DNA from: Acaryochloris thomasi RCC1774
GTDB lineage: Bacteria > Cyanobacteriota > Cyanobacteriia > Thermosynechococcales > Thermosynechococcaceae
Direction of reading: 5' to 3'
Assembly (NCBI RefSeq): GCF_003231495.1
Contig: NZ_PQWO01000036.1
Location: forward strand, 1-29,988
DNA length: 29,988 bases
Shown here: positions 3 through 17,772 of the stretch, piece after piece
Position numbering within the stretch: position 1 is the stretch's first letter
Layout of the letters: every line of letters starts with the position of its first letter
Notes under the pieces: generated by a model
What the model saw: the letters and a program-made list of their open reading frames with translations, nothing else
Databases searched by the model: none
What the model was told of the DNA's origin: nothing
Made by a program: the position numbers and the translations under genes

Positions 3-242
3 ATGCCGTGGGATTTTCGCAAAGGTATTCGAGCAAAGGTACAGCCGAAGCCAACCCTATCTGTTCCCAAAACTGCTACTCCTTCGCGGTCAGGATGCGA
101 TCGCTCTTATCCAGATGTTTGCATTCCTTCTTCTCCGCCTGACTTGGACTGTGGTGATATTAGCTATCGTCGTTTCCGTGTGGTTGGGGCAGACCCGCAT
201 CGATTTGATGGGAATCTTGATGGAGTGGGCTGTGAGCGATAG
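3..242 (+). CDS. 3' end of a staphylococcal-nuclease (SNase)-like protein with a Cys-rich C-terminal tail; the 5' end lies outside the window
   Basis: The ORF runs from the window edge. The PWDFRKG motif is typical of the end of the SNase fold. It is followed by CDRSYPDVCIPSSPPDLDCGDI...DPHRFDGNLDGVGCE, a tail I recall from cyanobacterial thermonuclease-family proteins. A HIP1 site lies at 97-104. Confidence 0.5.
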   Translation: MPWDFRKGIRAKVQPKPTLSVPKTATPSRSGCDRSYPDVCIPSSPPDLDCGDISYRRFRVVGADPHRFDGNLDGVGCER

Positions 243-313
243 TTATGATTATGGACACGATTGATGTGATGGCTAGGGTAAGTTGACAACAGGCCAAAGA
301 ATTACTTCTGTAG

Positions 314-1006
314 ATGAAACAAGACTTTGATCCGAGCGACAACCTCAAAAAAATTTCGCTCTACACCTTTATCGCTTTTCTATCGATCAGTGCATTTTTT
401 GCCATCGCTAGCGTATTGACTGGTAGGTTCGGGGAATTTGAGCTGAAGGTCTTGATCACGACCTCTGTGATTGCCATTGCTAGTATTTGTTCTTTGTGTT
501 GTTCCGCCTACTCCAGTCGGAAACAAAATACTGTTCCTAGTTACAGTGGCATTGCACTGGCAGGTGCTTCTGCCGTGATGTTGATACTGGGTGTGTGGGC
601 AGAGATTGCTGCTGAAGGGTATTGGAAAAGCACAGCTATTCTCAGCATTTTCGCATTCGCATCCGCACATTCGCTGGCTCTATTAGCTGTGCGCCTGAGA
701 GCAGAGCACGCATGGGTTCAGTTCGTTACAGTCATTAACATCTTCACATTTGCGACTGTTATCTCAGCGACTATCCTTGGCGAGATCAGCAACGAGGGGA
801 ACGTTAAATTTGTCACTATGCTTGCAATCCTTGCGGCACTAGAAACGTTAGTAATTCCTATCCTGGGGCGATTAGTGAAAGTAAAGGGGTCTCAAGTGAG
901 AGAAGTTCTATCCCTCACTAAACGGGTAGATGGAGCCTATGAAGACAAGCATGGAACTCTTTATGAAGTAAAAAAAATATCAGACAAGCCACCTGGAAGT
1001 ATCTAG
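314..1006 (+). CDS. polytopic membrane protein, unknown function
   Basis: ATG-initiated 230-aa ORF with about six hydrophobic helices (e.g. ISLYTFIAFLSISAFFAIASVL, VLITTSVIAIASICSLCC, GIALAGASAVMLILGVW) and a charged C-terminal tail. I recognise no family motif. Confidence 0.55.
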   Translation: MKQDFDPSDNLKKISLYTFIAFLSISAFFAIASVLTGRFGEFELKVLITTSVIAIASICSLCCSAYSSRKQNTVPSYSGIALAGASAVMLILGVWAEIAAEGYWKSTAILSIFAFASAHSLALLAVRLRAEHAWVQFVTVINIFTFATVISATILGEISNEGNVKFVTMLAILAALETLVIPILGRLVKVKGSQVREVLSLTKRVDGAYEDKHGTLYEVKKISDKPPGSI

Positions 1007-1080
1007 GTCATGATTGATTTAAGGAACTATGGAACTTGCCGGATACTGTTCATCAAAGGCCACTGACTGATTGCTGTCCA

Positions 1081-1491
1081 TCAACTAGATTTACTGCTCT
1101 TGTCCTTAGACTGATGATGGGGGATGAACCAAACGAGTGAGGCAACAACAAGGTCAAGGATTGAATGATAAATATTAAGATAGGTTACTTCACCTGATAC
1201 TCTTGAAACCTCGACTAAATCCATTTCTAATCCTGGCTTAGCCAAACTTTCAGCAAGTTCTTCTAGAATTCTTCTCTCAGATAGGACTCTGTTGAGAGTT
1301 GTAAGGTTGATAATAGCAAACACCAAAAAAGCGACAATGAGAATCACTCTGATTGCTACAGGGCGTGTCGCCTTTTGCGCTGCTGTCACGAAGCCTAGAA
1401 TTCCGATAGCCAAAGTAATATAAAGGTTCCATAATGCCTGGAATGCACCAAAGCGCTCGTAAAGAAGAGGAAGAACATCTGTTAATTCCAT
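1081..1491 (-). CDS. small membrane protein, unknown function
   Basis: ATG-initiated 136-aa ORF with at least two clear hydrophobic helices (LYITLAIGILGFVTAA, VILIVAFLVFAIINL), convergent with the preceding gene. Confidence 0.45.
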   Translation of the reverse strand: MELTDVLPLLYERFGAFQALWNLYITLAIGILGFVTAAQKATRPVAIRVILIVAFLVFAIINLTTLNRVLSERRILEELAESLAKPGLEMDLVEVSRVSGEVTYLNIYHSILDLVVASLVWFIPHHQSKDKSSKSS

Positions 1492-1900
1492 ACCGGAGCA
1501 ATAGAGAGTTCTACAGGGGAATGTCTTCTTCTCTCTGGCTTGAGAAAGAATTATGCAAGATGGAACAAAAATTTAGGCGTTGCATGGTCGAAGTATAAAG
1601 CAGTATCCAATCTCTTAACCTATGAAGTGTCCAGATTGATACTCCTTCATATCTATAGAATGACACTATGACCTCATTGCCGGTTGATTGTATCGTTTGA
1701 CGGTATTTTGGACCTGAAGCTCTCTGATGTCCTATTAGCTTCAAAACCCACCATCAAGACTCCTGTCTTTTGGAACTATAACGATGACCGGAACACCTGC
1801 TTGATTGCTCATTGAGTGGCTCTAAAGATCTTTAAAGTGTCATTGAAGGTTATAGGAAAAGTGACTTTGGATGCCTGTTTTTAGTATTCAGCTCTGAATA

Positions 1901-1917
1901 GGCTGTTTCGCAAAAAC
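1901..1917. repeat. solo IS6-family terminal inverted repeat, left-end orientation
   Basis: GGCTGTTTCGCAAAAAC matches the left IR of the complete IS at 4114-4130 (GGCTGTGTCGCAAAAAC) at 16 of 17 positions. No transposase follows it. Confidence 0.45.
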
Positions 1918-2199
1918 ACAATCATTGTTTCCATGAGCTGCACCCGTTTAGGTAGCTGCTCTGGCTGCCTAAGGAGCGAAACACCTAAGTTTTCGTCCTT
2001 GATGCGATTGAGAGTATAGAGAAAAATGTGGAAGAATTGATTCTTTGAGGTCGAAATCATATAGATCTGTAGATAAATCTGACTTTTCTTATCGAAATTC
2101 ATTGATTCATCTGTAGGCAATCTTTTTAATGAAATACTTGAATAAATATCATGCACTTGGATAAAGAACTTTTAGATAGAGGTGGAAGTATATATTTCC

Positions 2200-3222
2200 A
2201 TGAATTCTAGTAATAATACTTTGCAAAAACTTGTGCCACCTTCCGCAAGTGTAAATGATGTGAATGGGATTCTTCCACCTGATGAGGGATTTAGCTACTT
2301 TGATGCTTATGATCAATATCCATTCCTGCATTCAGCAAAGCAGTTTAAAAAAGTCAATGCATGGCGGCTGGCTGATTGTGCATTGCTAGCATACGCCCAT
2401 GAGGATTTTTCTAAGCGGCAGTTTGAGAAGTTTGGATTGCAGAAGTTTAGACTGTTTTCTGGGAATAGTACTCAATGTCATGTCGCTAGCAATGATCAGT
2501 TCTCAATTGTTGATTTTCGTGGTACAGAGATAAAGAATTCCAACCTCATTCAAGATCTCCTGATTGATGTTCGTGCGAATTTTTCTGATTCCTCGCTAGG
2601 TGGGAAAGTCCATGATGGCTTCAAGGCTGCTCTGGATGAAATCTGGTACGGAGAAGATGGCCTTCTACAATACTTGCAACAGCTCAAAAATGAGTTTCAG
2701 GAGATGCATTTTTGGTATACAGGTCATAGTTTAGGTGCTGCCCTTGCTGTTCTAGCTGCTGGAAGGTTCAAGCATGTTCAGGGCATATATACTTACGGTT
2801 GTCCGAAAATAGGTAATTCAGCATTTACAAGTAATTTTGCCCCAACGAATAATTTCTATCGGTTCGTCAATAACAATGATGTGATTCCAGAGTTGCCCCT
2901 AACCAATCTGTGGGTTACATCAGGTACGACAAACCAATTGGGTGTACCTATCCCGTGGGTTGACTTTCATGCTCCAGAACTTTATCAGCAGGTTGGTTCT
3001 CTGATGTATATTGATCAGGCAGGTAAATCCTCAGAAATGCCTAGTTCTCAGGCTCAGTTAATTGATCGTTTTGAAGGGATTGTTAATAATGCAAAGGATT
3101 CTGTTGTAAACCTTATGTCAGCACGCCTTGCCAACTTGCCTGATAGTTTTGTAGATCATGCTCCAGTCTTCTACGCAGTGCATACACGTAACAACTTTAT
3201 TGATTCGCTTGGGGCAGGATAG
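2200..3222 (+). CDS. class 3 lipase (Lipase_3) family alpha/beta hydrolase
   Basis: Nucleophile elbow GHSLGAALA, Asp in FVNNNDVIPELP, and His in VDHAPVFY. The order and spacing fit the Lipase_3 Ser-Asp-His triad. The ATG at 2200 is preferred over the GTG at 2182. Confidence 0.8.
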   Translation: MNSSNNTLQKLVPPSASVNDVNGILPPDEGFSYFDAYDQYPFLHSAKQFKKVNAWRLADCALLAYAHEDFSKRQFEKFGLQKFRLFSGNSTQCHVASNDQFSIVDFRGTEIKNSNLIQDLLIDVRANFSDSSLGGKVHDGFKAALDEIWYGEDGLLQYLQQLKNEFQEMHFWYTGHSLGAALAVLAAGRFKHVQGIYTYGCPKIGNSAFTSNFAPTNNFYRFVNNNDVIPELPLTNLWVTSGTTNQLGVPIPWVDFHAPELYQQVGSLMYIDQAGKSSEMPSSQAQLIDRFEGIVNNAKDSVVNLMSARLANLPDSFVDHAPVFYAVHTRNNFIDSLGAG

Positions 3223-3230
3223 CTACTATA

Positions 3231-3626
3231 TCACCGCACCACCGGCAACTCTTCCCACCGTGTTGTGAACGCCGGCGTACACCGCTCCCGCTTCATGGCC
3301 CACTGTTGGCTGCAGCCCTCGCTAGCAAAGAACACCGCCCGCCGTCCATAAATCCGATTGAGCTGATCGATCGCACTCATGAGTGCTACAGCCTTTTCGC
3401 TATCCCTTCGGTAAAACAGATTGCCCTGCATCGCATTTGCCTGGGAGATATCTAAGAGCATCACCCCCGCCTTTGCATAGCGCGGCCCCTGCTTGTAAAT
3501 TCTCCGTAGCGCTTGCCCTGCCGCATTGATCAGCTTGCGGGTGTCAGCCGTGGGAACTGGGAACTTGGCTAAGGCTGACTGGTCGTAGTATTTGGGGTTT
3601 ATGGTGAATCGGTACAGGAAACAACG
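3231..3626 (-). pseudogene. umuC: 3' fragment (about 130 codons) of umuC, the Y-family translesion DNA polymerase V catalytic subunit
   Basis: Hand translation upstream of the listed ORF keeps the frame open to a TAG at 3627-3629. The product reads ...PVPTADTRKLINAAGQALRRIYKQGPRYAKAGVMLLDIS...GNLF...WAMKRERCTPAFTTRWEELPVVR, which matches the conserved UmuC C-terminus (YxKAGVML, TTRW). The N-terminal about 290 aa, including the catalytic palm, are absent, and there is no umuD. Confidence 0.7.
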
Positions 3627-4113
3627 CTAAGCCTGTAACGCCCTGACAGCAAGGAATACAGGCGCTAATTTTGGCGTATTTTTGAAGGCGCAAATTGCTG
3701 TAACCCTTACTGGTTATGCAATAGAAGGTTTTGCATTTTTTGCTTTTTGTTGTATCTGGCCTGTAATCCCTTTCAGATAAGGCTTTCAGGGACTATTCCT
3801 GAATTTGGCCTTCATTTTCCTGGAACTCATAGTCTGTTGCTCCAGAGTATCTTAACTACTTTGGAGCTTTACTCAACAATGCCGATTAATAATTTATCGA
3901 TCCATTGTCTTGGGTAAGTACTTCTAAGAAAAAGCAAATCTCATTATGTCTACTTTTTATGCACTTTTACCCATCATTTTTTCGTATTTAGAGCTTGAAT
4001 ATGTTGATGTTCTCACTGTGTGAGAGGATCCTTAGAACAAGTCATGTCAACTCTTGAGAGACAAAGTAAATAACTTACTTGAATCCGTAGAACTCTTTAA
4101 CTACAAGTAATAC

Positions 4114-4956
4114 GGCTGTGTCGCAAAAACTGGGGCAGATCGCCTAAGGCTGTAATCTAGAGAGTCAATCTATCGCCTCCTTCTTCCGACATGAACCCTG
4201 CTGAACCGTTCAAGTGGCGTCACTATCAAGCCGAGATTATCCTGCTCAATGTCCGCTGGTACTGCCGTTATCCTCTGAGCTACCGGAACTTAGAGGATAT
4301 GATGCTTGAGAGAGGACTGGAAGTTGATCACAGCACTATTAATCGCTGGGTTCTCCACTATGGCCCTGAACTTGATGATCGGACTCGCCCATACATCAAG
4401 CCCACCAACGATTCTTGGAAAGTGGATGAGACTTATATCAAGGTAAGAAAGAAGTGGATGTATCTCTACCGGGCCATCGACTCGGACGGCAACACCCTTG
4501 ACTTCCTGCTCACTGCTCGACGCAATGCCCCTGCTGCAGAGCGTTTCTTGAGAAAAGTGCTTCTCAATGATTACACCCAAGACCCTCGAGTGATTAACGT
4601 TGACAAGAACCCAGCCTACCCTAAAGCGATTGAGAAATTACAGAAAGATGAAGACTTGCCGGAACGCTCGAAACTCAGAGCAGTAAAGTATTTGAACAAC
4701 TTGATCGAACAAGATCATAGATTTATAAAACGCCTAACTAAAGCAGGGATGGGATTTGGCTCGTTTTATACGGCTCGTCGCACTCTCAAGGGTTTTGAAT
4801 CAATGAACATGATCAGGAAGGGACAGGTGAAGGGCGTTGAGAAAAGAGATGTCATGGGACAGATCTCTTTCATAAACAACATCTTCGGAGTGGCGGCTTA
4901 GTCCTTACATTGAGTTATGGTTTCTTGTGCCCATGCTGAGTATTTGCGACACAGCC
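4114..4956 (+). mobile_element. complete IS6-family insertion sequence (843 bp)
   Basis: The terminal inverted repeats are GGCTGTGTCGCAAA at 4114-4127 and its reverse complement TTTGCGACACAGCC at 4943-4956. They bracket a single DDE transposase gene, and the size is typical of IS6/IS26-type elements. Confidence 0.85.
4191..4901 (+). CDS. IS6-family DDE transposase
   Basis: 236 aa. The N-terminus FKWRHYQAEIILLNVRWYCRYPLSYRNLEDMMLERG is typical of IS6. The DDE residues sit in WKVDETY, YRAIDSDG and NNLIEQDHR. Confidence 0.9.
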   Translation: MNPAEPFKWRHYQAEIILLNVRWYCRYPLSYRNLEDMMLERGLEVDHSTINRWVLHYGPELDDRTRPYIKPTNDSWKVDETYIKVRKKWMYLYRAIDSDGNTLDFLLTARRNAPAAERFLRKVLLNDYTQDPRVINVDKNPAYPKAIEKLQKDEDLPERSKLRAVKYLNNLIEQDHRFIKRLTKAGMGFGSFYTARRTLKGFESMNMIRKGQVKGVEKRDVMGQISFINNIFGVAA

Positions 4957-4978
4957 CTTTTTCCTATTATTTCTAAAA

Positions 4979-7900
4979 TCACTTGGGATGGCTATAGCTT
5001 TTGAAGCAGACCCATCGTCGCATGAGTTCTACGTTATAAGAATACAGACCATTCTGTTGAGAAATCACATCATGGTGAATCAGTCTTTCCAAAGCGGAGC
5101 TGATATTCTCTGCCTCAAGATCCGTTTTCTCTACTAACTGGGCTTGAGTCATAGCACCTTCCCTAAGCTCATAAAGTAGCTCAATTTGGTTGTCAGGTTG
5201 CGTCTCTGAAGCTTGCATCCAGACACCATTAAAGTAGGCATTAGCCTCTCGATAAAACTCTGGAGTATTAACCACTGCTTCAATATCCTCAAGAAAAAAG
5301 CATCTCTCACGTTCGAGTCTTTCTTCACAAATCTGACGATTAAACAAGGTTACAAGAGAATGACAGATAAGTTGTAAAAGATAAGGTTGTCCGTTTGATA
5401 GAGTAATTATCTCGTGAACTGATTCAGGTGTATAGTCAACGTCGAACTCTGGAGAAGGTTGAGTGACAAGCTTCTGAGCCGCGACATCAGGTAAGAAACT
5501 AACTGGGATTGATAATACACACCTATACAAGCTACTCCAATAGTTCTGGCTCATCTCCTGTAGCGTATGTAGGCCAGCAAAGGCGATGGTGAACCAGTTA
5601 TATGTTTGAATCAGTCCACGCAGGAAGTCTAAAATCTGAGGACTAAATAGGCCTCTTGAAATATTGATTTCAATATGCTCAAACTCATCTATCGCTACAA
5701 TAAATCTTTGCTTTTGATTGAATTTATTAACCTGTCGAAAGAATTGGTTCAAGGCATTATAGGGGCTTCGACTAAAAAAATCTGAATATTGCGGCTCTTG
5801 CATCTGATTTTGATGTTCAGGTAAGACACTTTCATATACTCTTACAGCCAATTCATACAGCAGTTCATTCGTGTTTGTATGCCCGACCAACAGCATATTG
5901 AAGTCAATAATTTGTATAGACGCTCCGAATCGTAGCTTCATATTTTGAAGGATTGAAGACTTACCCATGCGCCGATGGCCATAGAGCACTACTGATGGAC
6001 AGTGCTCGGAGTTGCCCCAAAGCTCTTCCAAGTACTGCATAATATCTTCTCTACCTACAAATAAGTCCCCAGTAACAGGTGTACCGACGACATAGGGATT
6101 GACTACAGGCTTGAGAATATTTGTGCGTCCTATCTTACCTCCAGCCTCACTGATAAGCCTGTGCCACCGATTGAGAATTGTCTGCAATAGCGTTTGCTCA
6201 GGATTAGCAACCTCCGAAACAAGATACTCACTCAAATTATTAAGAGCCTCATTCGCTCTTAATAATGCCGCTGCACGATTTACGCGGCTAGTTGCATTTA
6301 TGAAAGTTGTTATCTCTAAGCTGATTTCTCTCAGCGTTTGGAGTGCAGCTAGAACAGTAGGCCGGATAGGATAGTTGCTGGGTTGAAATACCCCAAAATG
6401 TGCCTCTACGCCAGACAGCAAATCAATCGTCCGATAGCTGAGTAAGTCCGCCATAAGTTCAAATGACCACTCGATCTCGTTACCGCCTTGATAGCTATTC
6501 AACTGACTGTAAATAGGCCGATAGTTTGGCAAGTCAAAATCTGTTGAGCGGCTGATGTTTATCTCCGAAAGTGCGAGTAACATACCAGAAAAATGGGTTA
6601 GTGGTGTCTCTCGGCGATCTTGCAGAATGCAGGTTGATGAATATACCCTATGCTCGAAAATACAGCATGGTTTCCTGAAGTTACAGCTCTTCCATTGTCC
6701 GCTCAATTCACTCAACAGTATTTCTCCAAGCGATGAAATTTTATCCCACGCATCAGTCGTTTCTGGAGGGAAAACATAGATGTCCCACTCTGGTTCAGTC
6801 AAAAACTGGTACAAAACATGCAGGGGAGCAGTATGGTGATGCAGATATCGTTTGACCGGCTGGTACACAACCCAACGCTGGAAAGGGTTGCTGAGCAGTT
6901 GTCCAATCACAGCTATCTCTTCTTGCTTGTAAAGAAGAGTTTGAGTTATACAGCGCTGGGTACCAGGAAGTGGAATCACGGACAACGCATCCCACTTAGC
7001 AGGGTGTTTCACCCCCAGTCGAGAACTAAATAAACTGAGTGGCAATTCAACAATATATAGATGAAATCGCAGTGTCAGCAGGATTGCCACCACACCATCC
7101 AATAGGCCCCACATCCAGTCTCCAGAAGACCTACCTATGGCAACACCGATAGCGATACAGATAGATAAGCTGACACAAATGCCTCTACCAAGACTGATAC
7201 CTGCTCCTATACCTCCACTCGCGGCGAGACCCGCCATCACACAAAATAACAAACCTCCAAATGTATTATCTTCAGGATTACCACCTGCCCGTGACATGCT
7301 GTTGACTATGACAAAAAGATATCCAGCAATAAAGCTTGTTGCTAAACCAACAGGAGTAGCAATCACTATTCCGAGAATCCCGCCAACGACCAAGGCAATA
7401 GACAACCATATCAATGCACCAAAGATAAGTGGAACTTGGTAGGCATTCGTGATGATTTCCCAATTTAGGGCGATACTGGGCAGGACACCAAGTATTGAAG
7501 CAAGTATGAGTCCTCCTGCAGTACCAGAATTTACTGCGACGATCGTGCTAGCTGATGCACCTCGGGCAAAACCAACTCCAATGCCTAACACTCCGAAAAA
7601 CACAATGAAAAAAGATGCGCTGATTGCTCCTCCTGCAAGGAGACCTTGTAGCCATCCCAGCCAATTTGCCTTCAAAGAAGTGAGTGCGGTGATAGCCAGT
7701 ATAAGTGGAAGACTGAGTAGAGCCGACACTAAACAAGCAGTACCTGGGATAGCAAGAAATAAACGATTGTAGGCAGAGGAGCGCAAAGCTTGAAAGATAT
7801 GCGAACCTGGTCCAGCTCGATACAAACTAGGATCAGCTTGATAGAGATATTGTTTGAGGCAACTAGGACGAAAGTATGCCCAGAATGCAAGTTGTAGATA

Positions 7901-8038
7901 GTGCAAAGGGTTTAGTAGGCTCAGTTGCAGCGGTATCCGATACTGGTATGTTGGGAAAGTAGGCATATTGCTCGCATTAGTTGGTATAACTTCGATAGAG
8001 CTGTGCTGCGGCTTGCTGCAGACGGGCCGGATGGCCAT
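4979..8038 (-). CDS. membrane-anchored STAND/AAA-like P-loop NTPase: N-terminal polytopic Gly/Ala-rich membrane domain, helical middle region, NTPase, C-terminal winged-helix
   Basis: 1019-aa ORF. Walker A is VVLYGHRRMGKSSIL (5954-5980) and Walker B is FIVAIDEFE (5672-5704). It is preceded by NPYVVGTPVTGDLFVGRE, which is typical of Arch_ATPase/AAA_16-like NTPases. Residues about 90-335 are almost entirely hydrophobic Gly/Ala/Ile/Leu helices. The C-terminus (MTQAQLVEKTDLEAENISSALERLIHHDVI) looks like a winged helix. An alternative ATG at 7966 would remove the 62-nt overlap with the upstream gene. Confidence 0.8.
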   Translation of the reverse strand: MAIRPVCSKPQHSSIEVIPTNASNMPTFPTYQYRIPLQLSLLNPLHYLQLAFWAYFRPSCLKQYLYQADPSLYRAGPGSHIFQALRSSAYNRLFLAIPGTACLVSALLSLPLILAITALTSLKANWLGWLQGLLAGGAISASFFIVFFGVLGIGVGFARGASASTIVAVNSGTAGGLILASILGVLPSIALNWEIITNAYQVPLIFGALIWLSIALVVGGILGIVIATPVGLATSFIAGYLFVIVNSMSRAGGNPEDNTFGGLLFCVMAGLAASGGIGAGISLGRGICVSLSICIAIGVAIGRSSGDWMWGLLDGVVAILLTLRFHLYIVELPLSLFSSRLGVKHPAKWDALSVIPLPGTQRCITQTLLYKQEEIAVIGQLLSNPFQRWVVYQPVKRYLHHHTAPLHVLYQFLTEPEWDIYVFPPETTDAWDKISSLGEILLSELSGQWKSCNFRKPCCIFEHRVYSSTCILQDRRETPLTHFSGMLLALSEINISRSTDFDLPNYRPIYSQLNSYQGGNEIEWSFELMADLLSYRTIDLLSGVEAHFGVFQPSNYPIRPTVLAALQTLREISLEITTFINATSRVNRAAALLRANEALNNLSEYLVSEVANPEQTLLQTILNRWHRLISEAGGKIGRTNILKPVVNPYVVGTPVTGDLFVGREDIMQYLEELWGNSEHCPSVVLYGHRRMGKSSILQNMKLRFGASIQIIDFNMLLVGHTNTNELLYELAVRVYESVLPEHQNQMQEPQYSDFFSRSPYNALNQFFRQVNKFNQKQRFIVAIDEFEHIEINISRGLFSPQILDFLRGLIQTYNWFTIAFAGLHTLQEMSQNYWSSLYRCVLSIPVSFLPDVAAQKLVTQPSPEFDVDYTPESVHEIITLSNGQPYLLQLICHSLVTLFNRQICEERLERERCFFLEDIEAVVNTPEFYREANAYFNGVWMQASETQPDNQIELLYELREGAMTQAQLVEKTDLEAENISSALERLIHHDVISQQNGLYSYNVELMRRWVCFKSYSHPK

Positions 8039-9107
8039 CAGTTTCAGAAATCAAACGTTGGATCTCAGCCTCAGTAAATTCGACTTCAGTTTCACTGAGG
8101 CGTTTTCGTAAAAACTGACTAGCAATTTCGGGAGTAAAGTTGCCAACCATATAAGGGCGACCAAACAAACCTGCTAAGGGTGAGGTCATCACAGGTGAGT
8201 CAGGAAAAAGTAAGTCTAAGTTAGTACGGCTGGCAATGACCAAAGAGAGAGGAGCATCAAAACCATCAGCAAGTCCCCGCAACTCAGATCTCTCGTCTCC
8301 AGAAAATAGGTCTGACCGGGTCATCTTCTCAATCTCGTCAATACATAGAATGTAACGACGTTGCTGCAAAGCTCTCTTCAAGGCAAACCCTCTACAGGTT
8401 TTGATACCGAGAGAGTAGCAAAGAGACTCGAACAAATCGTTCTCACCATGAACCCACTCCATGTTGATAAGAACAAATCCATAGCTTGAGAGTGAGGGTA
8501 CCCTTGGACCTTTCTGGCAAATCATCGAGAGTATAGAAGACTTACCAATCTCTGACATGCCTACCAATGATACGTTGCAGCCTTTAGCTAATTCTACAAA
8601 GAGCTGTCCAAAAAGGTCTACACGGTCAAAAAAGCGGTTCTCATCAGTTATTCGTCCCCGGTCACCGAAAGGCAAATCTGCAATGGTGGCTTTTACAGAA
8701 AGCGGGGAAATTCCTGAACGCTGAGCCATATGCTCTTCTCTAGCGACAGACCATTGGGGAAACCGTTGTGCCCAAAGCCATTGATAAGCTTTCTGCCAAG
8801 GGCTTTCTCCCTTCGGATACCGCCCAACAACGTTTGCTTCATCCGCGATTGAATCTCCTAAGCAGCAACCGGACTCAGCTAAAACTCGACAGATGACTCT
8901 TAGGTTATCTTGGAAAATCTGAACTGGATTATCTGAAATCCAAGAATGACTTAATGATTGAGCAATATCAATGTTCTTCCACTGTTTCTTCTGTGGATCA
9001 AAACGAGCCATGAAAATATCACGCCTCTTGCCGGAAAATCCATATAGATCAACCATCTCAGAAATGAATATGTACTCAAGACTGCTTTGTCTAGGGGAGA
9101 AGTTCAT
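7977..9107 (-). CDS. P-loop NTPase with an N-terminal HTH-like domain
   Basis: Walker A is VSLVGMSEIGKSSIL (8527-8561) and Walker B is YILCIDEIEKM. The N-terminal about 130 aa (LYGFSGKRRDIFMARF...IDIAQSL...GRYPKGESPWQKAYQWLW) resemble the sigma-r4/LuxR-like leader that I recall on cyanobacterial NACHT/AAA-WD40 proteins. The ATG at 9107 is preferred over the TTG at 9125. Confidence 0.75.
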   Translation of the reverse strand: MNFSPRQSSLEYIFISEMVDLYGFSGKRRDIFMARFDPQKKQWKNIDIAQSLSHSWISDNPVQIFQDNLRVICRVLAESGCCLGDSIADEANVVGRYPKGESPWQKAYQWLWAQRFPQWSVAREEHMAQRSGISPLSVKATIADLPFGDRGRITDENRFFDRVDLFGQLFVELAKGCNVSLVGMSEIGKSSILSMICQKGPRVPSLSSYGFVLINMEWVHGENDLFESLCYSLGIKTCRGFALKRALQQRRYILCIDEIEKMTRSDLFSGDERSELRGLADGFDAPLSLVIASRTNLDLLFPDSPVMTSPLAGLFGRPYMVGNFTPEIASQFLRKRLSETEVEFTEAEIQRLISETDGHPARLQQAAAQLYRSYTN

Positions 9108-9659
9108 AAGCGGCAAGAACCTCAAAGCATTTATAGGTCCAGCATAAACCTAGAATGACGCAAATCAAAAGCGAGGAAACATCGATCAACTTAAATTCTA
9201 TTTGTTTTCTATTTTGCACCTATTTTATATATCTACAAGGCTTAGTAATATAGATTTTAAGATGAGTTTCATGCACATATTCTCAGCATAATAGTGAGAT
9301 ACTAAAGCTTTAAATTAGTCTATAAGAATATAGTTGATTGAAGAAAATGGGATTTCTAGAATCTGTAAATATGTAAAGTATTAGCAATTGTGGAGATTGT
9401 ATCATACAAAATAATAATGTTGATGTTGGAAACGGAAAGCGTAACAGATTCCCAGCCTATACTCAAAAAATATCTATCTTGTAAGTTCCTGCGAATTCAC
9501 GACTGAATGATCTTGGGCTTGAGATCTGTTACGGTTCTAAGAACCAGAATGAGGGCCTAGAAAATATATTGAGCCTTTTACCTTCAGCAACCATGCTGTT
9601 ATAGGTTAAATGAATTATTTAGTTCTAACCACAGTATTTTGAAATAAGGAGACATATTG

Positions 9660-10073
9660 ATGAAAATAAAATCTTGGGTATTCAGCCTTGCTTGTAGCTG
9701 TATATCTTTATCTATTTTCGCAATGATACCAACGCCAACCTCAGCAAATATTAACTCAGAAAGAGCTATTCAGGAATGGTCTGGGAATTGGGACTGTATT
9801 ATTGATGGCAGACCATCAAAAATTTCATTTAATTATGATTTTGGCAAAGGATGGGGTATTAGGTTTAGTGACAATGGAGGTCCTTGGAAGACTCTTGTTG
9901 CGAGGCGGTTAGATTCTAATGACCCACCTGCAGATCGCCCAGGAAATCTCTTTCCACTTAAATATGCTGATGATGGGAATCATTGGCTACTAATACTGCA
10001 TGGAGGTAGTCGTAAGGCTAGTGGATATACAACTTGGAATAAAACACCCTATGGACTCCATTGCCAGAAATGA
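9660..10073 (+). CDS. small secreted protein, unknown function
   Basis: AAGGAG lies 7 nt upstream of the ATG at 9660. The N-terminal signal peptide is MKIKSWVFSLACSCISLSIFAMIPTPTSA. The mature part contains two Cys, which may form a disulfide. Confidence 0.6.
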   Translation: MKIKSWVFSLACSCISLSIFAMIPTPTSANINSERAIQEWSGNWDCIIDGRPSKISFNYDFGKGWGIRFSDNGGPWKTLVARRLDSNDPPADRPGNLFPLKYADDGNHWLLILHGGSRKASGYTTWNKTPYGLHCQK

Positions 10074-10392
10074 TAGCTCTTAGCGGAGTAGTTCAAACCA
10101 GGAGAAAACTTCGGACTTAGTAAAATAACTTACATCTACAGTCAGACATAGGTTTTAGGGATTTATCACACACAAAAAGTGTTTCGCTGGCCGTCTGGAA
10201 GTTAAACCTGCCAACGAATTGCTGATCTGTTTGTTCAGGCTGTATGACTTGAGCTGGTGGAAACGATCCATTTTGAGAAAGGCTCTGCAGCCTTTTTATA
10301 GAAAGGCTTCCAGAAAATTTTAATGCCTGCGGAATGTAGAGTATATGGCATATATTTTGATGATGTTGTCTAATCAATTTTAGGATATTAGA

Positions 10393-11343
10393 ATGAGATC
10401 GATTACTCAAATTAATACGTTCGCAATTTCATTTATACTATTTTACTCTTGTCACCAAATTATATACGCACAGGATAAAAATCCTATTAACTTGATATAT
10501 CCATCTAATTCAATTTATAGATCTGTTCAAAAGCGTAGTAATGATCTAAAAATAACTAATGAGAAAGGTATATTGATTAAAGCCCAAGCTAAAAAGACAG
10601 GGATTATTTTTGCAAATCTTTCACAAGGAAGCGAATTCTCTAGCAGTAGAATGCAGCTAACTGACATTCCTTTTTATGGCTTGCATGGTACATATTTTGC
10701 TGATGCGACTGGTGATGGGCGAGCTGATGCAATCGTCGTGAATGATGACAAGGTTACTGTGCGTCGCTCCGATGGGAGTAACTTTACAAGCAATGAAGCT
10801 TGGACTTCCAATCCTTATTACGGTAGCCGAGGAACATACTTTGCTGACGTAACTGGTGATGGACGAGCTGATGCAATCGTTGTGAATGATGACAAGGTTA
10901 CTGTGCGTCGCTCCGATGGGAGTAACTTTACGAGCAATGAAGCTTGGACTTCCAATCCTTATTACGGTAGCCGAGGAACATACTTTGCTGACGTAACTGG
11001 TGATGGACGAGCTGATGCAATCGTCGTGAATGATGACAAGGTCACTGTGCGTCGCTCCGATGGGAGTAACTTTACGAGCAATGAAGCTTGGACTTCCAAT
11101 CCTTATTACGGTAGTCTAGGGACATACTTTGCTGACGTAACTGGTGATGGGCGAGCTGATGCAATTGTAGTAAATGCAGACAAAGTTACTGTACGTCGGT
11201 CTGATGGAAGTAAGTTTATAGGTAATGAAGTATGGGCTACAAATAGAGATTTTCCTCTTCACAGAAGTATCACATTCGCTGACATAAATGCTGATAAATT
11301 AAGTGACTTTTTGGACTATCAGTCAGGCCCAATTTTATATTAG
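10393..11343 (+). CDS. secreted FG-GAP/VCBS-repeat protein
   Basis: Signal-like N-terminus (FAISFILFYSCHQIIYA). The unit YFADVTGDGRADAIVVNDDKVTVRRSDGSNF repeats four times, and FxDxxGDGxxD is the FG-GAP/VCBS calcium-binding signature. Confidence 0.8.
   Translation: MRSITQINTFAISFILFYSCHQIIYAQDKNPINLIYPSNSIYRSVQKRSNDLKITNEKGILIKAQAKKTGIIFANLSQGSEFSSSRMQLTDIPFYGLHGTYFADATGDGRADAIVVNDDKVTVRRSDGSNFTSNEAWTSNPYYGSRGTYFADVTGDGRADAIVVNDDKVTVRRSDGSNFTSNEAWTSNPYYGSRGTYFADVTGDGRADAIVVNDDKVTVRRSDGSNFTSNEAWTSNPYYGSLGTYFADVTGDGRADAIVVNADKVTVRRSDGSKFIGNEVWATNRDFPLHRSITFADINADKLSDFLDYQSGPILY
10675..11250 (+). repeat. four tandem 144-bp (48-codon) coding repeats
   Basis: Units start at 10675, 10819, 10963 and 11107. 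By my reading, units 2 and 3 differ at only two synonymous positions (atcgtTgtg/atcgtCgtg and aaggtTact/aaggtCact). Unit 4 diverges in its second half. Confidence 0.9.
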
Positions 11344-11520
11344 CAACTGGTTTTAGGTTTCCAATCCTGTACATCTGAAATATCGTCTAGCTTTCTTTAG
11401 CTTTATAGTGAACTGACAAATCAAGCAGTTCTGATTCTTATCGTTGTGAAAAGTAACGACATTCTTGTTCTTTTGACACGACAAGTTCAGCCCCCACATC
11501 GAGATAATTATCCGAGTCAC

Positions 11521-11670
11521 CTAAGCTGATCGCCGCTCCAGCCAATAGTAAAGCGCAACGATCGCAACCATCCCTGCGAGACAACCCCAGGCGGCAAGTG
11601 GCATCGGAGGTAGATACCAAGCCTCTGGTACTGAGATCGCATCTCTGGCTTCTTGGGTGTAGGGGTTCAT
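11521..11670 (-). CDS. 49-aa single-pass membrane peptide (below the ORF-track size cutoff)
   Basis: Hand translation gives MNPYTQEARDAISVPEAWYLPPMPLAAWGCLAGMVAIVALYYWLERRSA. Its ATG overlaps the TAA of the upstream gene by 1 nt (TAATG). It has one C-terminal hydrophobic helix. Confidence 0.35.
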   Translation of the reverse strand: MNPYTQEARDAISVPEAWYLPPMPLAAWGCLAGMVAIVALYYWLERRSA

Positions 11671-12092
11671 TACAGGTTTTCCAAAAGCATCTGAAATTGA
11701 TTCTGTTCCTCTTCACTCAAGAGAAATTCAGGATCGACTTTCCAGTCACCGTAGGCAGCTCGCCTGCCTTCAATAGTTACAGATTCGATGTAGTCGAATG
11801 TGCCTGGATCATCTATGAACAAACTGATCTTGTAATCATCAATCGTAAAATCAAATAGATCGCCAGATACGCAGCTCAAGAAAAAAGTATCAAATACTGC
11901 CTGGGCGTTCTTCTCTCCAGATATCATTTTTCTCAGGACTTCTGCAACCTCTCTCGGGCCAACCTGACAGTGAGAATGTTGCAGATCTGTATCAGAGTAA
12001 AGCGTAGGATCATTGAAATCAGGTCGTTCACTACTAAATTTTTGACTCTTTTGCCATTGAGTTAGTAGTAACGATTTTAGTATTGATTTCAT
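11670..12092 (-). CDS. hypothetical protein (140 aa)
   Basis: AAGGAG lies 8 nt upstream of the ATG at 12092, and the ATG is 12 nt after the nuclease stop. I recognise no family motif. Confidence 0.6.
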   Translation of the reverse strand: MKSILKSLLLTQWQKSQKFSSERPDFNDPTLYSDTDLQHSHCQVGPREVAEVLRKMISGEKNAQAVFDTFFLSCVSGDLFDFTIDDYKISLFIDDPGTFDYIESVTIEGRRAAYGDWKVDPEFLLSEEEQNQFQMLLENL

Positions 12093-12104
12093 TTGCACGG
12101 CTCC

Positions 12105-12893
12105 TTACAACGGCAACAACAACTGCATCCCCTTTGGCTTCCTGGCCGTCTCCGGCAACGGCTCCGGCACCTCACGCTTCGCCGCACAATACCTTTCGTA
12201 ACTACAGCGATCGCACTGCTGCCCTTCCTGCGGTCGCCACTCCTCCTCCCGATGGAGCTGCATCGCCAGATTCTCAATCAACCGCTGTGACTCCCGGCGA
12301 TGCTCCGGCGTTACTTCGTAGGGCTTCTTCTCCCCAGACCTCAGATAGATTAAACTCAGCTTCCGCAACGCCTGCCCGTAGACCTGCTTTAGCAACAGAT
12401 CATAGAGACCCAATTGGATATCAATGGCATCTGGCGGACTCATCTGTTTAGTCGTCTTATAGTCAATCAGCTCTAAGCCATCCTCAATGTAGTCCAGCCG
12501 ATCATATTGACCCCGCACCACAAATTCGATGTATCGAACCTGGAACTTACCTTTGATTCCCTGCTCCACACCCAACGGTTTATTCATCGAAGGGTACGGC
12601 TCAATAAACTGCTCAAAGTACCCTTTGAGCATCGACCACCCATCATCAACTTGCTTACTGCTTAGATCCCCTGTGTGGGCTTGCCACATCAACTCAAACC
12701 ATTCCAAGGAAGGTTTGGGGTGCCCATAGTTCCAATCACCGTAGATGTCCTTTAGTGCCGCATGGACAGCTTTACCCAATGCCGGTGAGCCAAAGGCTGA
12801 CTGCTCCTTGAGTCCCCGCTCATAGCGAAAGTAGTAGGACTGCGGACAGCTCTTGTACAGGTTTAGCCGGGTGGCAGAGATGGGGTAAGCCAT
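12105..12893 (-). CDS. PD-(D/E)XK nuclease, Cas4/RecB/AddB-like, with a probable Fe-S cluster
   Basis: Motifs found are YDRLDY, ELIDYKT (the D/ExK motif) and IQLGLY (the QxxxY motif). One N-terminal Cys (YKSCPQSYYF) plus the C-terminal CDRCSYERYC give the C...CxxCx5C pattern of Cas4/AddB nucleases. Confidence 0.75.
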   Translation of the reverse strand: MAYPISATRLNLYKSCPQSYYFRYERGLKEQSAFGSPALGKAVHAALKDIYGDWNYGHPKPSLEWFELMWQAHTGDLSSKQVDDGWSMLKGYFEQFIEPYPSMNKPLGVEQGIKGKFQVRYIEFVVRGQYDRLDYIEDGLELIDYKTTKQMSPPDAIDIQLGLYDLLLKQVYGQALRKLSLIYLRSGEKKPYEVTPEHRRESQRLIENLAMQLHREEEWRPQEGQQCDRCSYERYCAAKREVPEPLPETARKPKGMQLLLPL

Positions 12894-12998: not shown

Positions 12999-14015
12999 TT
13001 ACTCATCCAGTTCAGCAAGGATGTCTTGTAATTTCTTTTCTAATTCAAGTATCGATTTTTTGAACTTTGTTTTTTGCCGCTTTGATAATTTGGATATTTG
13101 TTTGGAACCAATGGAATCTATTCGTGAATGTAGCTTTGTTATTGAGTCAACTGCATTAGTCTGAACTGTTGGTTTGGCTTTCTTCTTCAATGCGGCGAGG
13201 GAGAGCTTATTGCTCACCGCTTCGTGTAGCAACGAGGCTCTGAGTTTTGGATCCTCTATCCTTCCTAGAAAAATAGCTTTGGTGTATTCAATCTTTCCAG
13301 AGTTATACGCTGCAAGAACTTCAGTCGGTAGTTCAAGTAGAGGCAGTCTTGAGGTGACAAAGGTTTTCACACCTAGCTCTGGAGCTGCTTCAATAAATGT
13401 GGACTCAATTAATGACTTAATACCTTGATCTATTTTAGCTTTACCCTCTGCTGCATTCTTGTACCGATACAGGCTACGGATAGTCTCCTTTTTTGTTTTT
13501 CCTAGCACTAGGGTTAGTAGGTATAGCAATTCCTCTGTATCATCAAGAGCGTTTAAGCTCCTTCTCCTCGTATTTTCAACTCGAGATAGTTTGACTGCGG
13601 TGACATCATCAACTTCTGCGATGTCTACCTTGATCTCAGTGAGACCTGCTGCTGTGGCTGCATCCAGCCTGGTTTCACCTGCAATTAGACGTAACGTTCT
13701 ATCTTTAAGTCTTTGCACCCAGATGGAACCAAGAAAACCGAAACTTTTTATACTTGCAACTAGATCGTTAAATGCTTCCTCATCCCTTTCTACTCTTGAT
13801 TGGTATGGCCTTCTCTGAATCTCAGAGATTGATACTACCGCTTGTGATAGGTTGTTTTTTCCAACCAGTTCTTCTAAATATTTTTCTGAGTCCGCTAGAT
13901 CTTTTTCTAGTTGTGAAATTTGTTGTCGAGCGTTGTCTAAGTCTTTTTGTGTTTCTAGTGCTTTTGAGCTTGTTGATAGGAATGATGAGACTTTCGGACG
14001 ATTTGTTGTGGCCAT
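12999..14015 (-). CDS. parB: ParB-family partition protein
   Basis: ParB N-terminal (Srx-like) domain: RPYQSRVERDEEAFNDLVASIKSFGFLGSIWVQ...LIAGETRLDAATAAGL. The gene lies directly downstream of parA. Confidence 0.85.
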   Translation of the reverse strand: MATTNRPKVSSFLSTSSKALETQKDLDNARQQISQLEKDLADSEKYLEELVGKNNLSQAVVSISEIQRRPYQSRVERDEEAFNDLVASIKSFGFLGSIWVQRLKDRTLRLIAGETRLDAATAAGLTEIKVDIAEVDDVTAVKLSRVENTRRRSLNALDDTEELLYLLTLVLGKTKKETIRSLYRYKNAAEGKAKIDQGIKSLIESTFIEAAPELGVKTFVTSRLPLLELPTEVLAAYNSGKIEYTKAIFLGRIEDPKLRASLLHEAVSNKLSLAALKKKAKPTVQTNAVDSITKLHSRIDSIGSKQISKLSKRQKTKFKKSILELEKKLQDILAELDE

Positions 14016-14043: not shown

Positions 14044-14862
14044 CTACTTGTACAAGTCGAGGACAACTTTTGTTAATGGCTCAAAGTCTTTGTTCGCGGG
14101 ATGCTTTGGGCGATATAGACTGAGTGGTGCGATACCTCGATTTGAGGCATTCTCGAATTCGCTCGAATAGCGAATTCCATTAAAGCAGCGAATATCTTGA
14201 GCACTAAGTACATCAGAGATTTCCTGGTAGAAAGCTTTCTGATCAGCATTACTTGCTACTTTCATGGGAACACCGCCAATGATTTCAGGGGGAGGTTCTA
14301 AATCGAGTGCTTCCGCTTCATTTCTAATCCACTGCAGTAAGGGGTCTATCCCTCCAAGCTTTGCTGACATAGGTAATGGCATGACAATATGCGAGGCTGC
14401 AGCTAGTGCTGAAAAACTCAAAACATCCATAGAAGCAGGAGAATCCAGTATGACTAGGTTGTAGGGGAGTTTGTACTTTTTTAGGTTCTTGCGAAGAATA
14501 AATTCCCTTCCTGTACGGCTAGGAAGATCTAAAGCTACAGACAACATGACATCTCCCCCGAGACACACATCAAATTTGCCCTTAGTGTTTACCCATTCAG
14601 GAGTAACAATAGGGTAGTTGCCTGAAAAATTGCGATCAAAAATTGCAGCCGTTGTATCATGTGGCGCGAGGTCTGGAGGTAAGCCACAAAACCGAGCCAG
14701 GGAGCCGTTTGTATCCAGGTCGATGAACAAGATATCTAAGCCATTTGCTGCTAATTGATAACCTAGCTGTATTGCTAAAGTTGTTTTGCCGACACCACCT
14801 GCATTTGCAACTACCCATAAGATGTTCTGTTTTGAGCTATCAAGCTTCTTTTTCCTTGGCAT
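14044..14862 (-). CDS. parA: ParA-family partition ATPase
   Basis: Deviant Walker A VVANAGGVGKTTLAIQLG, Walker A' IDLDTNGS, and Walker B LVILDSP. It is paired with parB. Confidence 0.9.
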   Translation of the reverse strand: MPRKKKLDSSKQNILWVVANAGGVGKTTLAIQLGYQLAANGLDILFIDLDTNGSLARFCGLPPDLAPHDTTAAIFDRNFSGNYPIVTPEWVNTKGKFDVCLGGDVMLSVALDLPSRTGREFILRKNLKKYKLPYNLVILDSPASMDVLSFSALAAASHIVMPLPMSAKLGGIDPLLQWIRNEAEALDLEPPPEIIGGVPMKVASNADQKAFYQEISDVLSAQDIRCFNGIRYSSEFENASNRGIAPLSLYRPKHPANKDFEPLTKVVLDLYK

Positions 14863-17436: not shown

Positions 17437-17772
17437 TTAAAACAGAATCGGCTTAATGCGACGCAACACATCCTGAAACAATAAATCAGGACACTCACAA
17501 ATAAACTGCGCCTTTCTGGCCCGGAAATCAAGCGATCGCAACTGGTCCACCATGATCACCCCTGTCACAGCCTCCCCCTCTGGGATAGCTACATAAAACG
17601 GATTTTGACGCTGGGTGTTACTGACCGGACAGACATAGGCAAACCCCATTTTCTGATTAAAGCCATCGTGGCTGATCACCAGAGCCGGACGTTTCCCCAT
17701 TTGCTCATGCCCAGCCTGGGGATCAAAACTCAACCAGATGAAATCTTTTCGCTTTGGAAGATACACTACCAA
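17437..17772 (-). CDS. mazF: MazF/PemK-family toxin endoribonuclease
   Basis: The motif run KRKDFIWLSFDPQAGHEQMGKRPALVIS...VCPVSN...MVDQLRSLDF is classic PemK/MazF. The start is non-ATG (TTG at 17772 or GTG at 17766) and overlaps the mazE stop. Confidence 0.85.
   Translation of the reverse strand: MVVYLPKRKDFIWLSFDPQAGHEQMGKRPALVISHDGFNQKMGFAYVCPVSNTQRQNPFYVAIPEGEAVTGVIMVDQLRSLDFRARKAQFICECPDLLFQDVLRRIKPILF

Follow-up and report, generated by a model that had tools for sequence, protein, structure and literature searches.

In animals, plants, fungi and bacteria alike, innate immunity and regulated cell death depend centrally on STAND/NLR proteins, and to our knowledge nearly all of the prokaryotic ones characterised so far are cytoplasmic and consist of a single protein. 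The criteria for the STAND class are said to go back to Leipe et al. in 2004; reportedly, they comprise a P-loop with the Walker A pattern GxxxxGK[ST] and the Walker B pattern hhhhD[DE], a sensor-1 arginine in the context hhh[ST][ST]R, a helical lid with a GxP motif, a winged helix, and an order of parts in which the N-terminal effector precedes the nucleoside triphosphatase (NTPase) and the C-terminal sensor repeats. Two described clades are relevant here. nSTAND1 (PF20703) is a STAND clade that was defined in systems of multicellular prokaryotes predicted to act against invaders (Kaur et al., eLife 2021, PMC8195603), and the architectures given in the source data of that paper are single polypeptides in the order effector or EAD, nSTAND1, (transmembrane segment), beta-propeller or FGS sensor. 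The passages on nSTAND2 describe a mobile two-gene operon with a STAND NTPase core in both products and with variable effectors (PMC8195603, Figure 6C), predict a toroidal hetero-multimer of the two, and place the clade closer to CR-ATPases and Dap3. A wider concept of conflict in multicellular prokaryotes links a constant core to effector or EAD domains that vary rapidly in related organisms, and includes a statistical enrichment in organisms of multicellular habit (Kaur et al. 2020, 2021). Here, we describe a pair of adjacent genes from Acaryochloris thomasi RCC1774, located on the minus strand of contig NZ_PQWO01000036.1; the window is the whole stretch of DNA analysed, i.e., the complete contig of 29,988 bp. 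A preliminary description made from the letters of this DNA had proposed a conflict or defence module of two NTPases, one of them fused to a large membrane domain.

We found that the two genes are one conserved operon, a real and widespread unit. Judged from motifs and predicted folds, both products are NTPases of the STAND/ATPase_2 type. We consider it about as probable as not (roughly 0.5) that the pair is an NLR-like paired STAND NTPase system, of a kind for which comparative genomics predicts a part in the conflicts of multicellular prokaryotes, either against invaders or by programmed cell death. The first product, hereafter the small protein (376 residues), consists of a helical N-terminal domain, an NTPase and its lid; the second, hereafter the large protein (995 residues), places an N-terminal motif, a hydrophobic region and a helical domain before its own NTPase, lid and winged helix.

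Using the large-protein alignment as query against GTDB species genomes (one genome per species), we obtained at least 454 relatives of the large gene; the analyses of loci refer to the best 80 of these. The bacterial loci among the 80 belong to cyanobacteria, Chloroflexota, Beggiatoaceae/Thiotrichales, Myxococcales, Desulfobacterales, Syntrophobacteraceae and a metagenome-assembled genome (MAG) of Hyphomicrobiaceae, and the archaeal ones to Methanothrix. The hosts are, in a qualitative view, mainly filamentous or social, yet Cyanobium, Microcystaceae and Acaryochloris are also among them. A small-NTPase gene lies directly upstream of the large gene and on the same strand in approximately 58 of the 63 loci that have at least 1.5 kb of upstream sequence. 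The reverse test, starting from the small protein, found the large gene downstream in 17 of about 19 metagenome loci with enough DNA. The treatment of the two genes as a single module in the preliminary description is borne out from both sides. Many of the pairs have a start/stop overlap of 4 nt or a gap of no more than 130 nt, which suggests translational coupling. It should be noted that the locus from a Methanothrix sp. MAG (L059:9081-12661), a filamentous methanogenic archaeon, holds a complete pair with a 4-nt overlap, and points to either inter-domain transfer or contamination of the MAG. At another locus (L014:12897-16658), a third large open reading frame (ORF) of about 1250 codons lies directly downstream of the pair; its NTPase is 24% identical to that of the large protein, and this ORF could represent a further paralogue of the cluster.

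The NTPase modules of the two proteins are paralogous (hhalign probability 98%, E 1.6e-13, 225 columns). In the profile-profile alignment, the Walker A and Walker B motifs of the two coincide, the pre-Walker segment NPF....FFDRE of the small protein is placed against NPY....FVGRE of the large one, the conserved arginine of the LRG motif (R277 and R783) occurs in LRGLADG and LRGLIQT, respectively, and the GxP motif is GHPARLQ in the former and GQPYLLQ in the latter. The distance matrices of the two NTPases co-vary across 55 pairs (Mantel r 0.85), and none of the 2000 permutations gave a value as high.

Within this paralogous framework, the variable element is the N-terminus of the small protein. 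At E<=1e-3, Pfam nSTAND1 matched 53 of the 56 linked small partners and ATPase_2 matched 16. The N-terminal domains of these 56 partners include CHAT (5 cases), TIR, EAD7, trypsin and caspase (4 each), the calcineurin-like phosphoesterase Metallophos (3), and EAD4, EAD9, the bacterial Death-like domain bDLD1 and HNH (a single case each); Mrr_cat, adenylate cyclase, PNP_UDP and XRE-type helix-turn-helix (HTH) domains (PF01381, PF13560) were found in the wider small family. Among 53 pairs of small NTPases with identity of at least 60%, 27 carry unrelated N-terminal domains. Thus, a constant core joined to effector or EAD domains that vary fast, the pattern named for multicellular conflict systems, is found in this family. 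A frameshift interrupts one small partner with an Mrr_cat restriction-endonuclease domain (L003:2887-4166), leaving the two ORFs 2887-3654 and 3555-4166; either an error of sequencing or a pseudogene could explain this. A precomputed PF26355 label stands on P0040, P0044, P0046 and other homologues of the small partner, with no match in the local Pfam copy.

The large protein varies differently. The N-terminal motif, the helical domain and the NTPase are retained across the family, and the hydrophobic stretch between them ranges from about 95 to more than 500 residues, with little sequence conservation. A phmmer search with residues 1-619 returned 221 clusters at E<=1e-3 among 1.84 billion representatives. 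Some large proteins contain an inserted WD40 propeller, a typical STAND sensor domain, that separates the first hydrophobic helix from the other membrane helices (L007:10001-13819, L056:8159-13942, and P0152, P0155, P0156, P0168, P0171, P0186 and P0140); because the propeller is flanked by transmembrane segments, it is predicted to lie outside the cytoplasm. P0152, P0168 and P0010 stop just before the NTPase; this module may have an ORF of its own, unless truncated contigs are the cause. The L056 ORF (1927 residues) and P0010 (1473 residues) contain the module of N-terminal motif, membrane region and helical domain twice in tandem, which implies an internal duplication of the putative sensor part. 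Since the membrane region is lost in some lineages and hosts a WD40 propeller in others, the large protein is probably a sensor, or a scaffold or anchor, rather than a dedicated effector. The preliminary description had seen a sensor and a membrane effector combined in the large protein, and a regulator in the small one; the comparison suggests that this assignment should probably be reversed: effectors are exchanged at the N-terminus of the small protein, and the large partner is constant.

The large gene can be read from two starts. The ORF extends over 4979..8038 (1019 codons from ATG 8038), and the internal ATG at 7966 gives the 995-residue form; because all close homologues of the large protein begin with the conserved MPTFPTY, we take ATG 7966 as the start, and the residue numbers of the large protein follow this form. 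The TAA of the small gene occupies 7979-7977, leaving a spacer of 10 nt before ATG 7966, whereas the alternative start at ATG 8038 would give an overlap of 62 nt. Both alternatives had been put forward earlier and both exist, the 10-nt spacing being the better one in view of the conserved start. The small ORF can begin at ATG 9107 (376 residues) or at TTG 9125 (382 residues). The deposited annotation differs for both genes. The NCBI model of the large gene (C1752_12034) has 711 residues, begins at an internal methionine and covers only the C-terminal part, so that the first 284 residues (7115-7966, minus strand), which contain the N-terminal motif and the whole membrane region, are omitted; the database protein P0001 (711 residues) is 100% identical to the large protein over 70% of the query. 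This missing N-terminal region would hide the architecture of the large protein from routine database searches. The NCBI model of the small gene has 344 residues from ATG 9011 and is 32 codons shorter than the 376-residue form; its start appears to be 32 codons too late, because P0033 and P0070 align upstream of it, which favours the longer form.

In the small protein, the conservation of NTPase motifs was judged across 55-62 homologues. The order is an NPF-type pre-strand, Walker A, Walker B, the sensor-1 arginine of VIASR and the GxP motif GHP; the chain ends after the lid motif and has no winged helix. The Walker B pattern was recovered by regular expression in 44 of the 55 paired homologues, R294 of the sensor-1 strand LVIASR is at least 90% conserved in alignment A3, and [AST][ST]R occurs in 38 of 55 partners. 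Residues 154-372 pass the Pfam nSTAND1 threshold marginally (29.5 bits vs 27.1). In the AlphaFold2 model, the module has a predicted local distance difference test score (pLDDT) above 90, and its top Foldseek match is 2qen (E 4.5e-8), followed by ORC/Cdc6, with plant NLR resistosomes also among the matches. In PDB profile searches, both NTPase modules match 2qen and 2fna. The N-terminal domain is helical in the model, with pLDDT of about 45-70. It has no Pfam match at E<=1, a three-sequence profile of it gave chance matches alone against the PDB, and its only homologues are P0033 and P0070. An HTH-like identity is plausible by way of these two relatives. The preliminary description had called the domain HTH-like on a 376-residue protein with the NTPase motifs GMSEIGKSS and ILCIDEIE; the length and the motifs stand, and the HTH assignment has no support in Pfam or the PDB.

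All four parts that had been named for the large protein (transmembrane helices, a helical region of about 300 residues, a STAND-like NTPase and a C-terminal winged helix) are present with the quoted motifs. The N-terminal motif, MPTFPTY..LNPL..HY.L.AFW.YFRP..LK.YLYQADP.LYR, is probably cytoplasmic because it is rich in arginine and lysine. The hydrophobic region contains 15% glycine, 35% glycine, alanine and serine together, and 5% charged residues, and has 11 GxxxG motifs vs 5.3 in shuffles; in the AlphaFold2 model it forms long helices. Lysine- and arginine-rich segments flank it on both sides, and this positive charge on both flanks suggests a topology with both termini inside and an even number (about eight) of helices. 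A weak profile match of this region to the ECF folate S-component 5d3m (E 0.005) was judged to be an effect of composition and rejected. The membrane region has no Pfam match, and the helical middle domain has no Pfam or PDB sequence match. Foldseek was run on whole models, in which the NTPase dominates the matches. Residues 640-990, comprising the NTPase and the winged helix, have pLDDT 85-92, and the module matches 2qen (E 5e-9, target TM-score 0.69), 2fna (0.65), Orc1/Cdc6, RuvB and plant NLR resistosomes. The winged helix is modelled as three helices and a beta-hairpin (pLDDT about 90), has weak Pfam matches to DUF7343, MarR_2 and HTH_27, and resembles that of 2qen and Orc1/Cdc6. The Pfam scores of the large protein fall under the thresholds: 23.3 bits vs 27.1 for nSTAND1, 23.6 vs 33.2 for ATPase_2, and just under for AAA_16. 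Its sensor-1 strand, AFAGLH, contains no arginine, and AG[LS]H is found in 52 of 55 homologues. For comparison, the sensor-1 motif of NB-ARC proteins is TTR. Both proteins have the P-loop expected of STAND proteins, with Walker A and Walker B, and no C-terminal sensor repeats were found in either window protein by ORF translation and Pfam; the functions that STAND proteins combine appear to be split over two genes here. The coordinates of all parts are collected in Table 1.

Table 1. Features of the gene pair and its immediate surroundings in the 29,988-bp window.
Feature	Coordinates	Strand	Description
Small gene	7977..9107	-	376 aa; helical N-terminal domain, nSTAND1-type NTPase and lid
N-terminal domain, aa 1-145	8673..9107	-	predicted variable effector/adaptor position of the family; helical here
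NTPase module, aa 146-376, including stop TAA 7977-7979	7977..8672	-	motifs by translation
Walker A, GMSEIGKSS (small)	8535..8561	-	GKS[ST] in 55/55 paired homologues
Walker B, YILCIDEIE (small)	8328..8354	-	D257 invariant in alignments A2 and A3
Large gene	4979..7966	-	ORF; 995 aa from ATG 7966
Conserved N-terminal motif, aa 1-67	7766..7966	-	alignment A1: W29, P34 and P46 invariant
Polytopic Gly/Ala-rich hydrophobic region, aa 68-313	7028..7765	-	about 8 predicted helices, GxxxG-rich; Kyte-Doolittle scans
HP..WD.L..(I/L)PLPGT linker and helical domain of about 290 aa, aa 314-619	6110..7027	-	all-alpha; pLDDT 70-89 over aa 330-615
NTPase and helical lid, aa 620-900	5267..6109	-	NPYV..FVGRE pre-strand, Walker A, Walker B, GQPYLLQ (GxP)
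Walker A, GHRRMGKSS (large)	5954..5980	-	invariant in A1; 55/55 paired homologues
Walker B, FIVAIDEFE (large)	5678..5704	-	D760, E761 and E763 invariant; 55/55 paired homologues
C-terminal helical segment and winged helix (aa 901-995), with stop codon	4979..5266	-	Pfam, AlphaFold2, Foldseek
IS6-family insertion sequence	4109..4961	+	DDE_Tnp_IS240 transposase 4191-4901, E 3.2e-44
AT-rich intergenic region	9126..9656	.	presumed promoter region; 531 bp, GC 0.32

For the mechanism of such a paired system, we infer a physical interaction of the two proteins, a division into sensing and executing roles, a trigger and a biological role, as follows. The large protein would be the constant, membrane-embedded partner, composed of the cytoplasmic N-terminal motif, the glycine-zipper helices, the cytoplasmic helical domain, and the NTPase, lid and winged helix. 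The small protein would be the shorter paralogue, reduced to NTPase and lid, with its N-terminus as an interchangeable output position. Upon sensing a membrane-proximal or extracytoplasmic cue, the large protein would bind or exchange nucleotide and co-oligomerise with the small paralogue, and the resulting clustering would activate the N-terminal domain of the latter. In relatives, this output may be a TIR, a caspase or CHAT domain, a trypsin, an HNH or Mrr nuclease or a phosphoesterase; EAD or Death-like adaptors would recruit further effectors. The output in the Acaryochloris copy would be the helical domain, possibly a DNA-binding domain or an adaptor, and the clustered glycine-zipper region may additionally permeabilise the membrane. 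At the level of the class, the conflict or abortive-infection logic proposed in the preliminary description fits the effector domains found in relatives.

A more specific version is that the pair is a sensor-helper NLR system with a true transmembrane receptor, which would sense events at the cytoplasmic membrane or beyond it, relay the signal to its NTPase on the cytoplasmic side and, through hetero-oligomerisation, fire the interchangeable death or signalling domain of the small paralogue. The cue might be a phage that adsorbs or injects its genome, damage to the envelope, or an encounter with non-kin cells, and detection might be by the glycine-zipper helices or, in some lineages, by the extracytoplasmic WD40 propeller. 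We regard this version as tentative and, as it stands, rather unlikely. If it were true, there would be a STAND/NLR immune receptor whose sensing takes place beyond the cytoplasm, and bacteria and archaea would have an NLR network of two proteins.

Several observations weigh against the interpretation as a paired conflict system. The hydrophobic region is missing, or reduced to 0-2 segments, in Myxococcales and in some other versions of the pair. In the window copy, this region has pLDDT below 50, and its topology is read from hydropathy and charge alone; the small protein of the window has no recognisable enzymatic effector domain. STAND sensors are usually C-terminal, so that sensing by an N-terminal region would be atypical. 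Five loci contain the large gene without the small partner, as solo, truncated or divergent copies. The co-variation of the two NTPases could be explained by inheritance in a shared operon instead of contact. Finally, neighbours at 15 related loci (124 flanking ORFs, Pfam and PADLOC) are mostly housekeeping genes with no defence-island signal, and the scan, which had no background control, is to be read as no support rather than as refutation; sporadic flanking matches were to MADS, a methyltransferase, PIN and UvrD. A defence-island context, which the earlier proposal had looked to, is accordingly not established.

An alternative in line with the preliminary description is that the large protein combines the sensor with a pore-forming glycine-zipper effector that acts through oligomerisation, and that the small NTPase regulates or licenses it. 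The hydrophobic region of most family members is enriched 2-5 fold in GxxxG over shuffles, and it stands at the N-terminus, the usual effector position in STAND proteins; in the window, where the small protein offers no enzyme, it could be the sole effector. Glycine-zipper segments are known as membrane-permeabilising toxins in TelE (PMC10434224) and in the ionophores of contact-dependent inhibition (PMC11630599), which provides a precedent. Conversely, classical effector domains are exchanged at the N-terminus of the small protein, and a purely regulatory small protein is hard to reconcile with this. The pair is also kept in Myxococcales and in several other versions in which the region is absent or has only 0-2 segments, a typical sensor is inserted within the region in some members, and the length and sequence of the region are poorly conserved. 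On balance, we regard a dedicated pore-forming large protein as doubtful, though still to be taken seriously. A role of this particular copy in signal transduction or transcription control, instead of immunity or suicide, in which a membrane STAND sensor would activate an HTH-bearing paralogue of the MalT/AfsR type and so control, e.g., the expression of the divergent neighbours, seems less probable still, and we would call it distinctly unlikely. STAND NTPases fused to DNA-binding domains are ATP-dependent regulators of transcription in bacteria (PMC7159879). The N-terminal domain of the window protein is helical and resembles region 4 of sigma-70 in its two closest relatives (Sigma70_r4_2 in P0033, at an E of only 0.13), XRE-type HTH domains occur in other relatives, the large protein ends in a winged helix, and the defence-island context is not consistent. 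However, the HTH assignment of the window protein is unsupported at any threshold, and no conserved target genes were found beside the pair across loci. The chassis of close relatives carries TIR, caspase, CHAT, trypsin, HNH, Mrr and Death-like adaptor domains, and a repertoire of this kind identifies the family as one of conflict or cell death. The window copy itself lies in a mobile block, flanked by an insertion sequence (IS) and free of HIP1 sites, on a plasmid-like contig.

The same block is what would speak for an incidental association, or for decaying passengers of a mobile element without current function in this strain: the IS6 element directly adjoins the pair, the block is HIP1-free, unlike the remaining contig, and frameshifts or truncations affect the related loci L003, L012, L025, L029, L051 and L058. 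Yet both ORFs of the window are intact (376 and 995 codons) with all ATP-binding motifs kept, the adjacency is maintained across several bacterial phyla and one archaeon, and the two NTPases co-vary, so we consider decay or chance very improbable. A role as a housekeeping AAA+ protein or as a transporter was also considered, and was rejected because the distribution is patchy, the context is mobile and the repertoire is one of effector domains.

Membership of the pair in a named defence system was rejected as well, as all matches were weak and at the level of the NTPase. PADLOC matched no named system; its best hit, to the candidate model PDC-S27 of PADLOC-DB 2.0 (E 5.7e-6), covers only 134 residues of the NTPase, and PDC-S01 (E 0.003) and mad8 (E 0.016) are other weak matches. 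Among NCBIfam antiphage models, the match was to DS41_1 (E 0.005, 15.8 bits vs a cut-off of 370), and PHROGs gave a weak NTPase-level match to phrog_6841, which is of unknown function. The earlier statement that the pair cannot be assigned to any named system agrees with the PADLOC and NCBIfam searches, neither of which gave a meaningful match.

The surroundings of the pair look like mobile DNA. The IS6 element is complete, has inverted repeats of 23 nt with 87% complementarity (4109-4131 and 4939-4961) and ends 17 nt from the stop codon of the large gene. HIP1 sites (GCGATCGC) number 13 in the window vs 0.33 expected by chance, and none lies within 105-12206, a block of 12 kb that holds the gene pair, the IS6 element, a class-3 lipase gene and an FG-GAP gene; the lack of HIP1 sites suggests a more recent acquisition of this block compared with the remaining contig. 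The HIP1-free block, the IS6 border and the AT-rich upstream region of about 530 bp had all been noted before and are confirmed, with the qualification that the two genes themselves (GC 0.442 vs 0.459 for the contig) are only mildly AT-rich. The intergenic region is common to the pair and to a divergent DUF6006 gene (9657-10073), whose product has an apparent signal peptide. Promoter-like hexamers occur on the minus strand at 9643-9614 and 9423-9396, and the counts in promoter-like and terminator scans were not above shuffled expectation. A protein of the FG-GAP/VCBS type (316 residues, 10393-11343), also divergent from the pair, contains four near-identical repeats of about 47 residues. Further along are a PD-(D/E)XK/Cas4-like nuclease (12105-12893), ParB (12999-14015), ParA (14044-14862), a tyrosine integrase fused to a PRiA4_ORF3 domain (731 residues, 15197-17392), a MazF/PemK toxin (17437-17772) and an IS110 transposase (25073-26131), because of which the contig looks plasmid-like or otherwise mobile. 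Among PLSDB plasmids, there was no DNA match to the pair and no protein match at E<=1e-20.

Compared with described systems, the pair shares with nSTAND1 the TIR, caspase, CHAT, trypsin, EAD and bDLD N-termini of its small partners, and the bias of its hosts toward cyanobacteria, Chloroflexota and further prokaryotes of filamentous or social habit. Unlike nSTAND1, it consists of two paralogous genes; the small protein has no winged helix or sensor, and the large protein does not reach the nSTAND1 threshold and carries its membrane and helical regions ahead of the NTPase, on the N-terminal side. The resemblance to nSTAND2, in so far as the available passages describe that clade, is that both are two-gene operons in which each product has a STAND-type NTPase. 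Within the same limits, the differences are that both partners of the pair keep Walker A and Walker B, and that one partner is a polytopic membrane protein, which is unmentioned in the description of nSTAND2 (PMC8195603). In the Pfam searches of the pair and its partners, nSTAND2 was not among the matches; of the nSTAND families, only nSTAND1, nSTAND6 and nSTAND3 were.

The archaeal ATPase_2/Arch_ATPase proteins (PF01637), i.e., 2qen of Pyrococcus abyssi and 2fna of Sulfolobus solfataricus, have the same AAA+ core, lid and winged helix, and both NTPase modules match them best, by structure as well as by PDB sequence. In contrast to the pair, they are soluble, stand-alone proteins of about 350 residues, with no membrane region, paralogue or effectors, and the sequence scores of the window proteins fall below the Pfam ATPase_2 threshold. 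Avs and bNACHT proteins are likewise modular STAND NTPases with swappable N-terminal effectors (nucleases, TIR, proteases, transmembrane effectors); they are encoded by single genes and have large C-terminal sensors, and the pair had no PADLOC match to Avs or NLR models. The pair was not found in the STAND survey PMC13581612, whose main text does not contain the word "membrane" and has "transmembrane" a single time, in the legend of a figure. Nor did we find the architecture described in the nSTAND and STAND papers and supplements that were covered, a literature that is incomplete mainly for subscription journals. Hence, the chassis and the logic are known, and the two-gene split with a membrane-embedded partner is undescribed in the literature searched, which is absence of evidence only. 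What is unusual is a widespread operon that splits an NLR-like switch into two co-evolving paralogues, one of which is predicted to reside permanently in the membrane.

By analogy only, the pair resembles the sensor-helper NLR pairs of plants (e.g., those with NRC helpers), in which two linked paralogous STAND NTPases divide detection and execution, and NRC resistosomes (9ri9, 9cc8) are among the structural matches of the NTPase modules. There is no specific sequence relationship to the plant proteins, and the pair is without leucine-rich-repeat sensors and the coiled-coil/TIR logic of helpers. In plant helper NLRs, an N-terminal coiled coil forms a membrane pore after activation, whereas the large partner described here is predicted to be embedded in the membrane constitutively. 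If the proposed model holds, the pair would be a bacterial counterpart of the plant sensor-helper pairs, with a route from membrane or extracellular events to NLR-type responses, and a tractable two-gene system for studying how STAND hetero-oligomers assemble.

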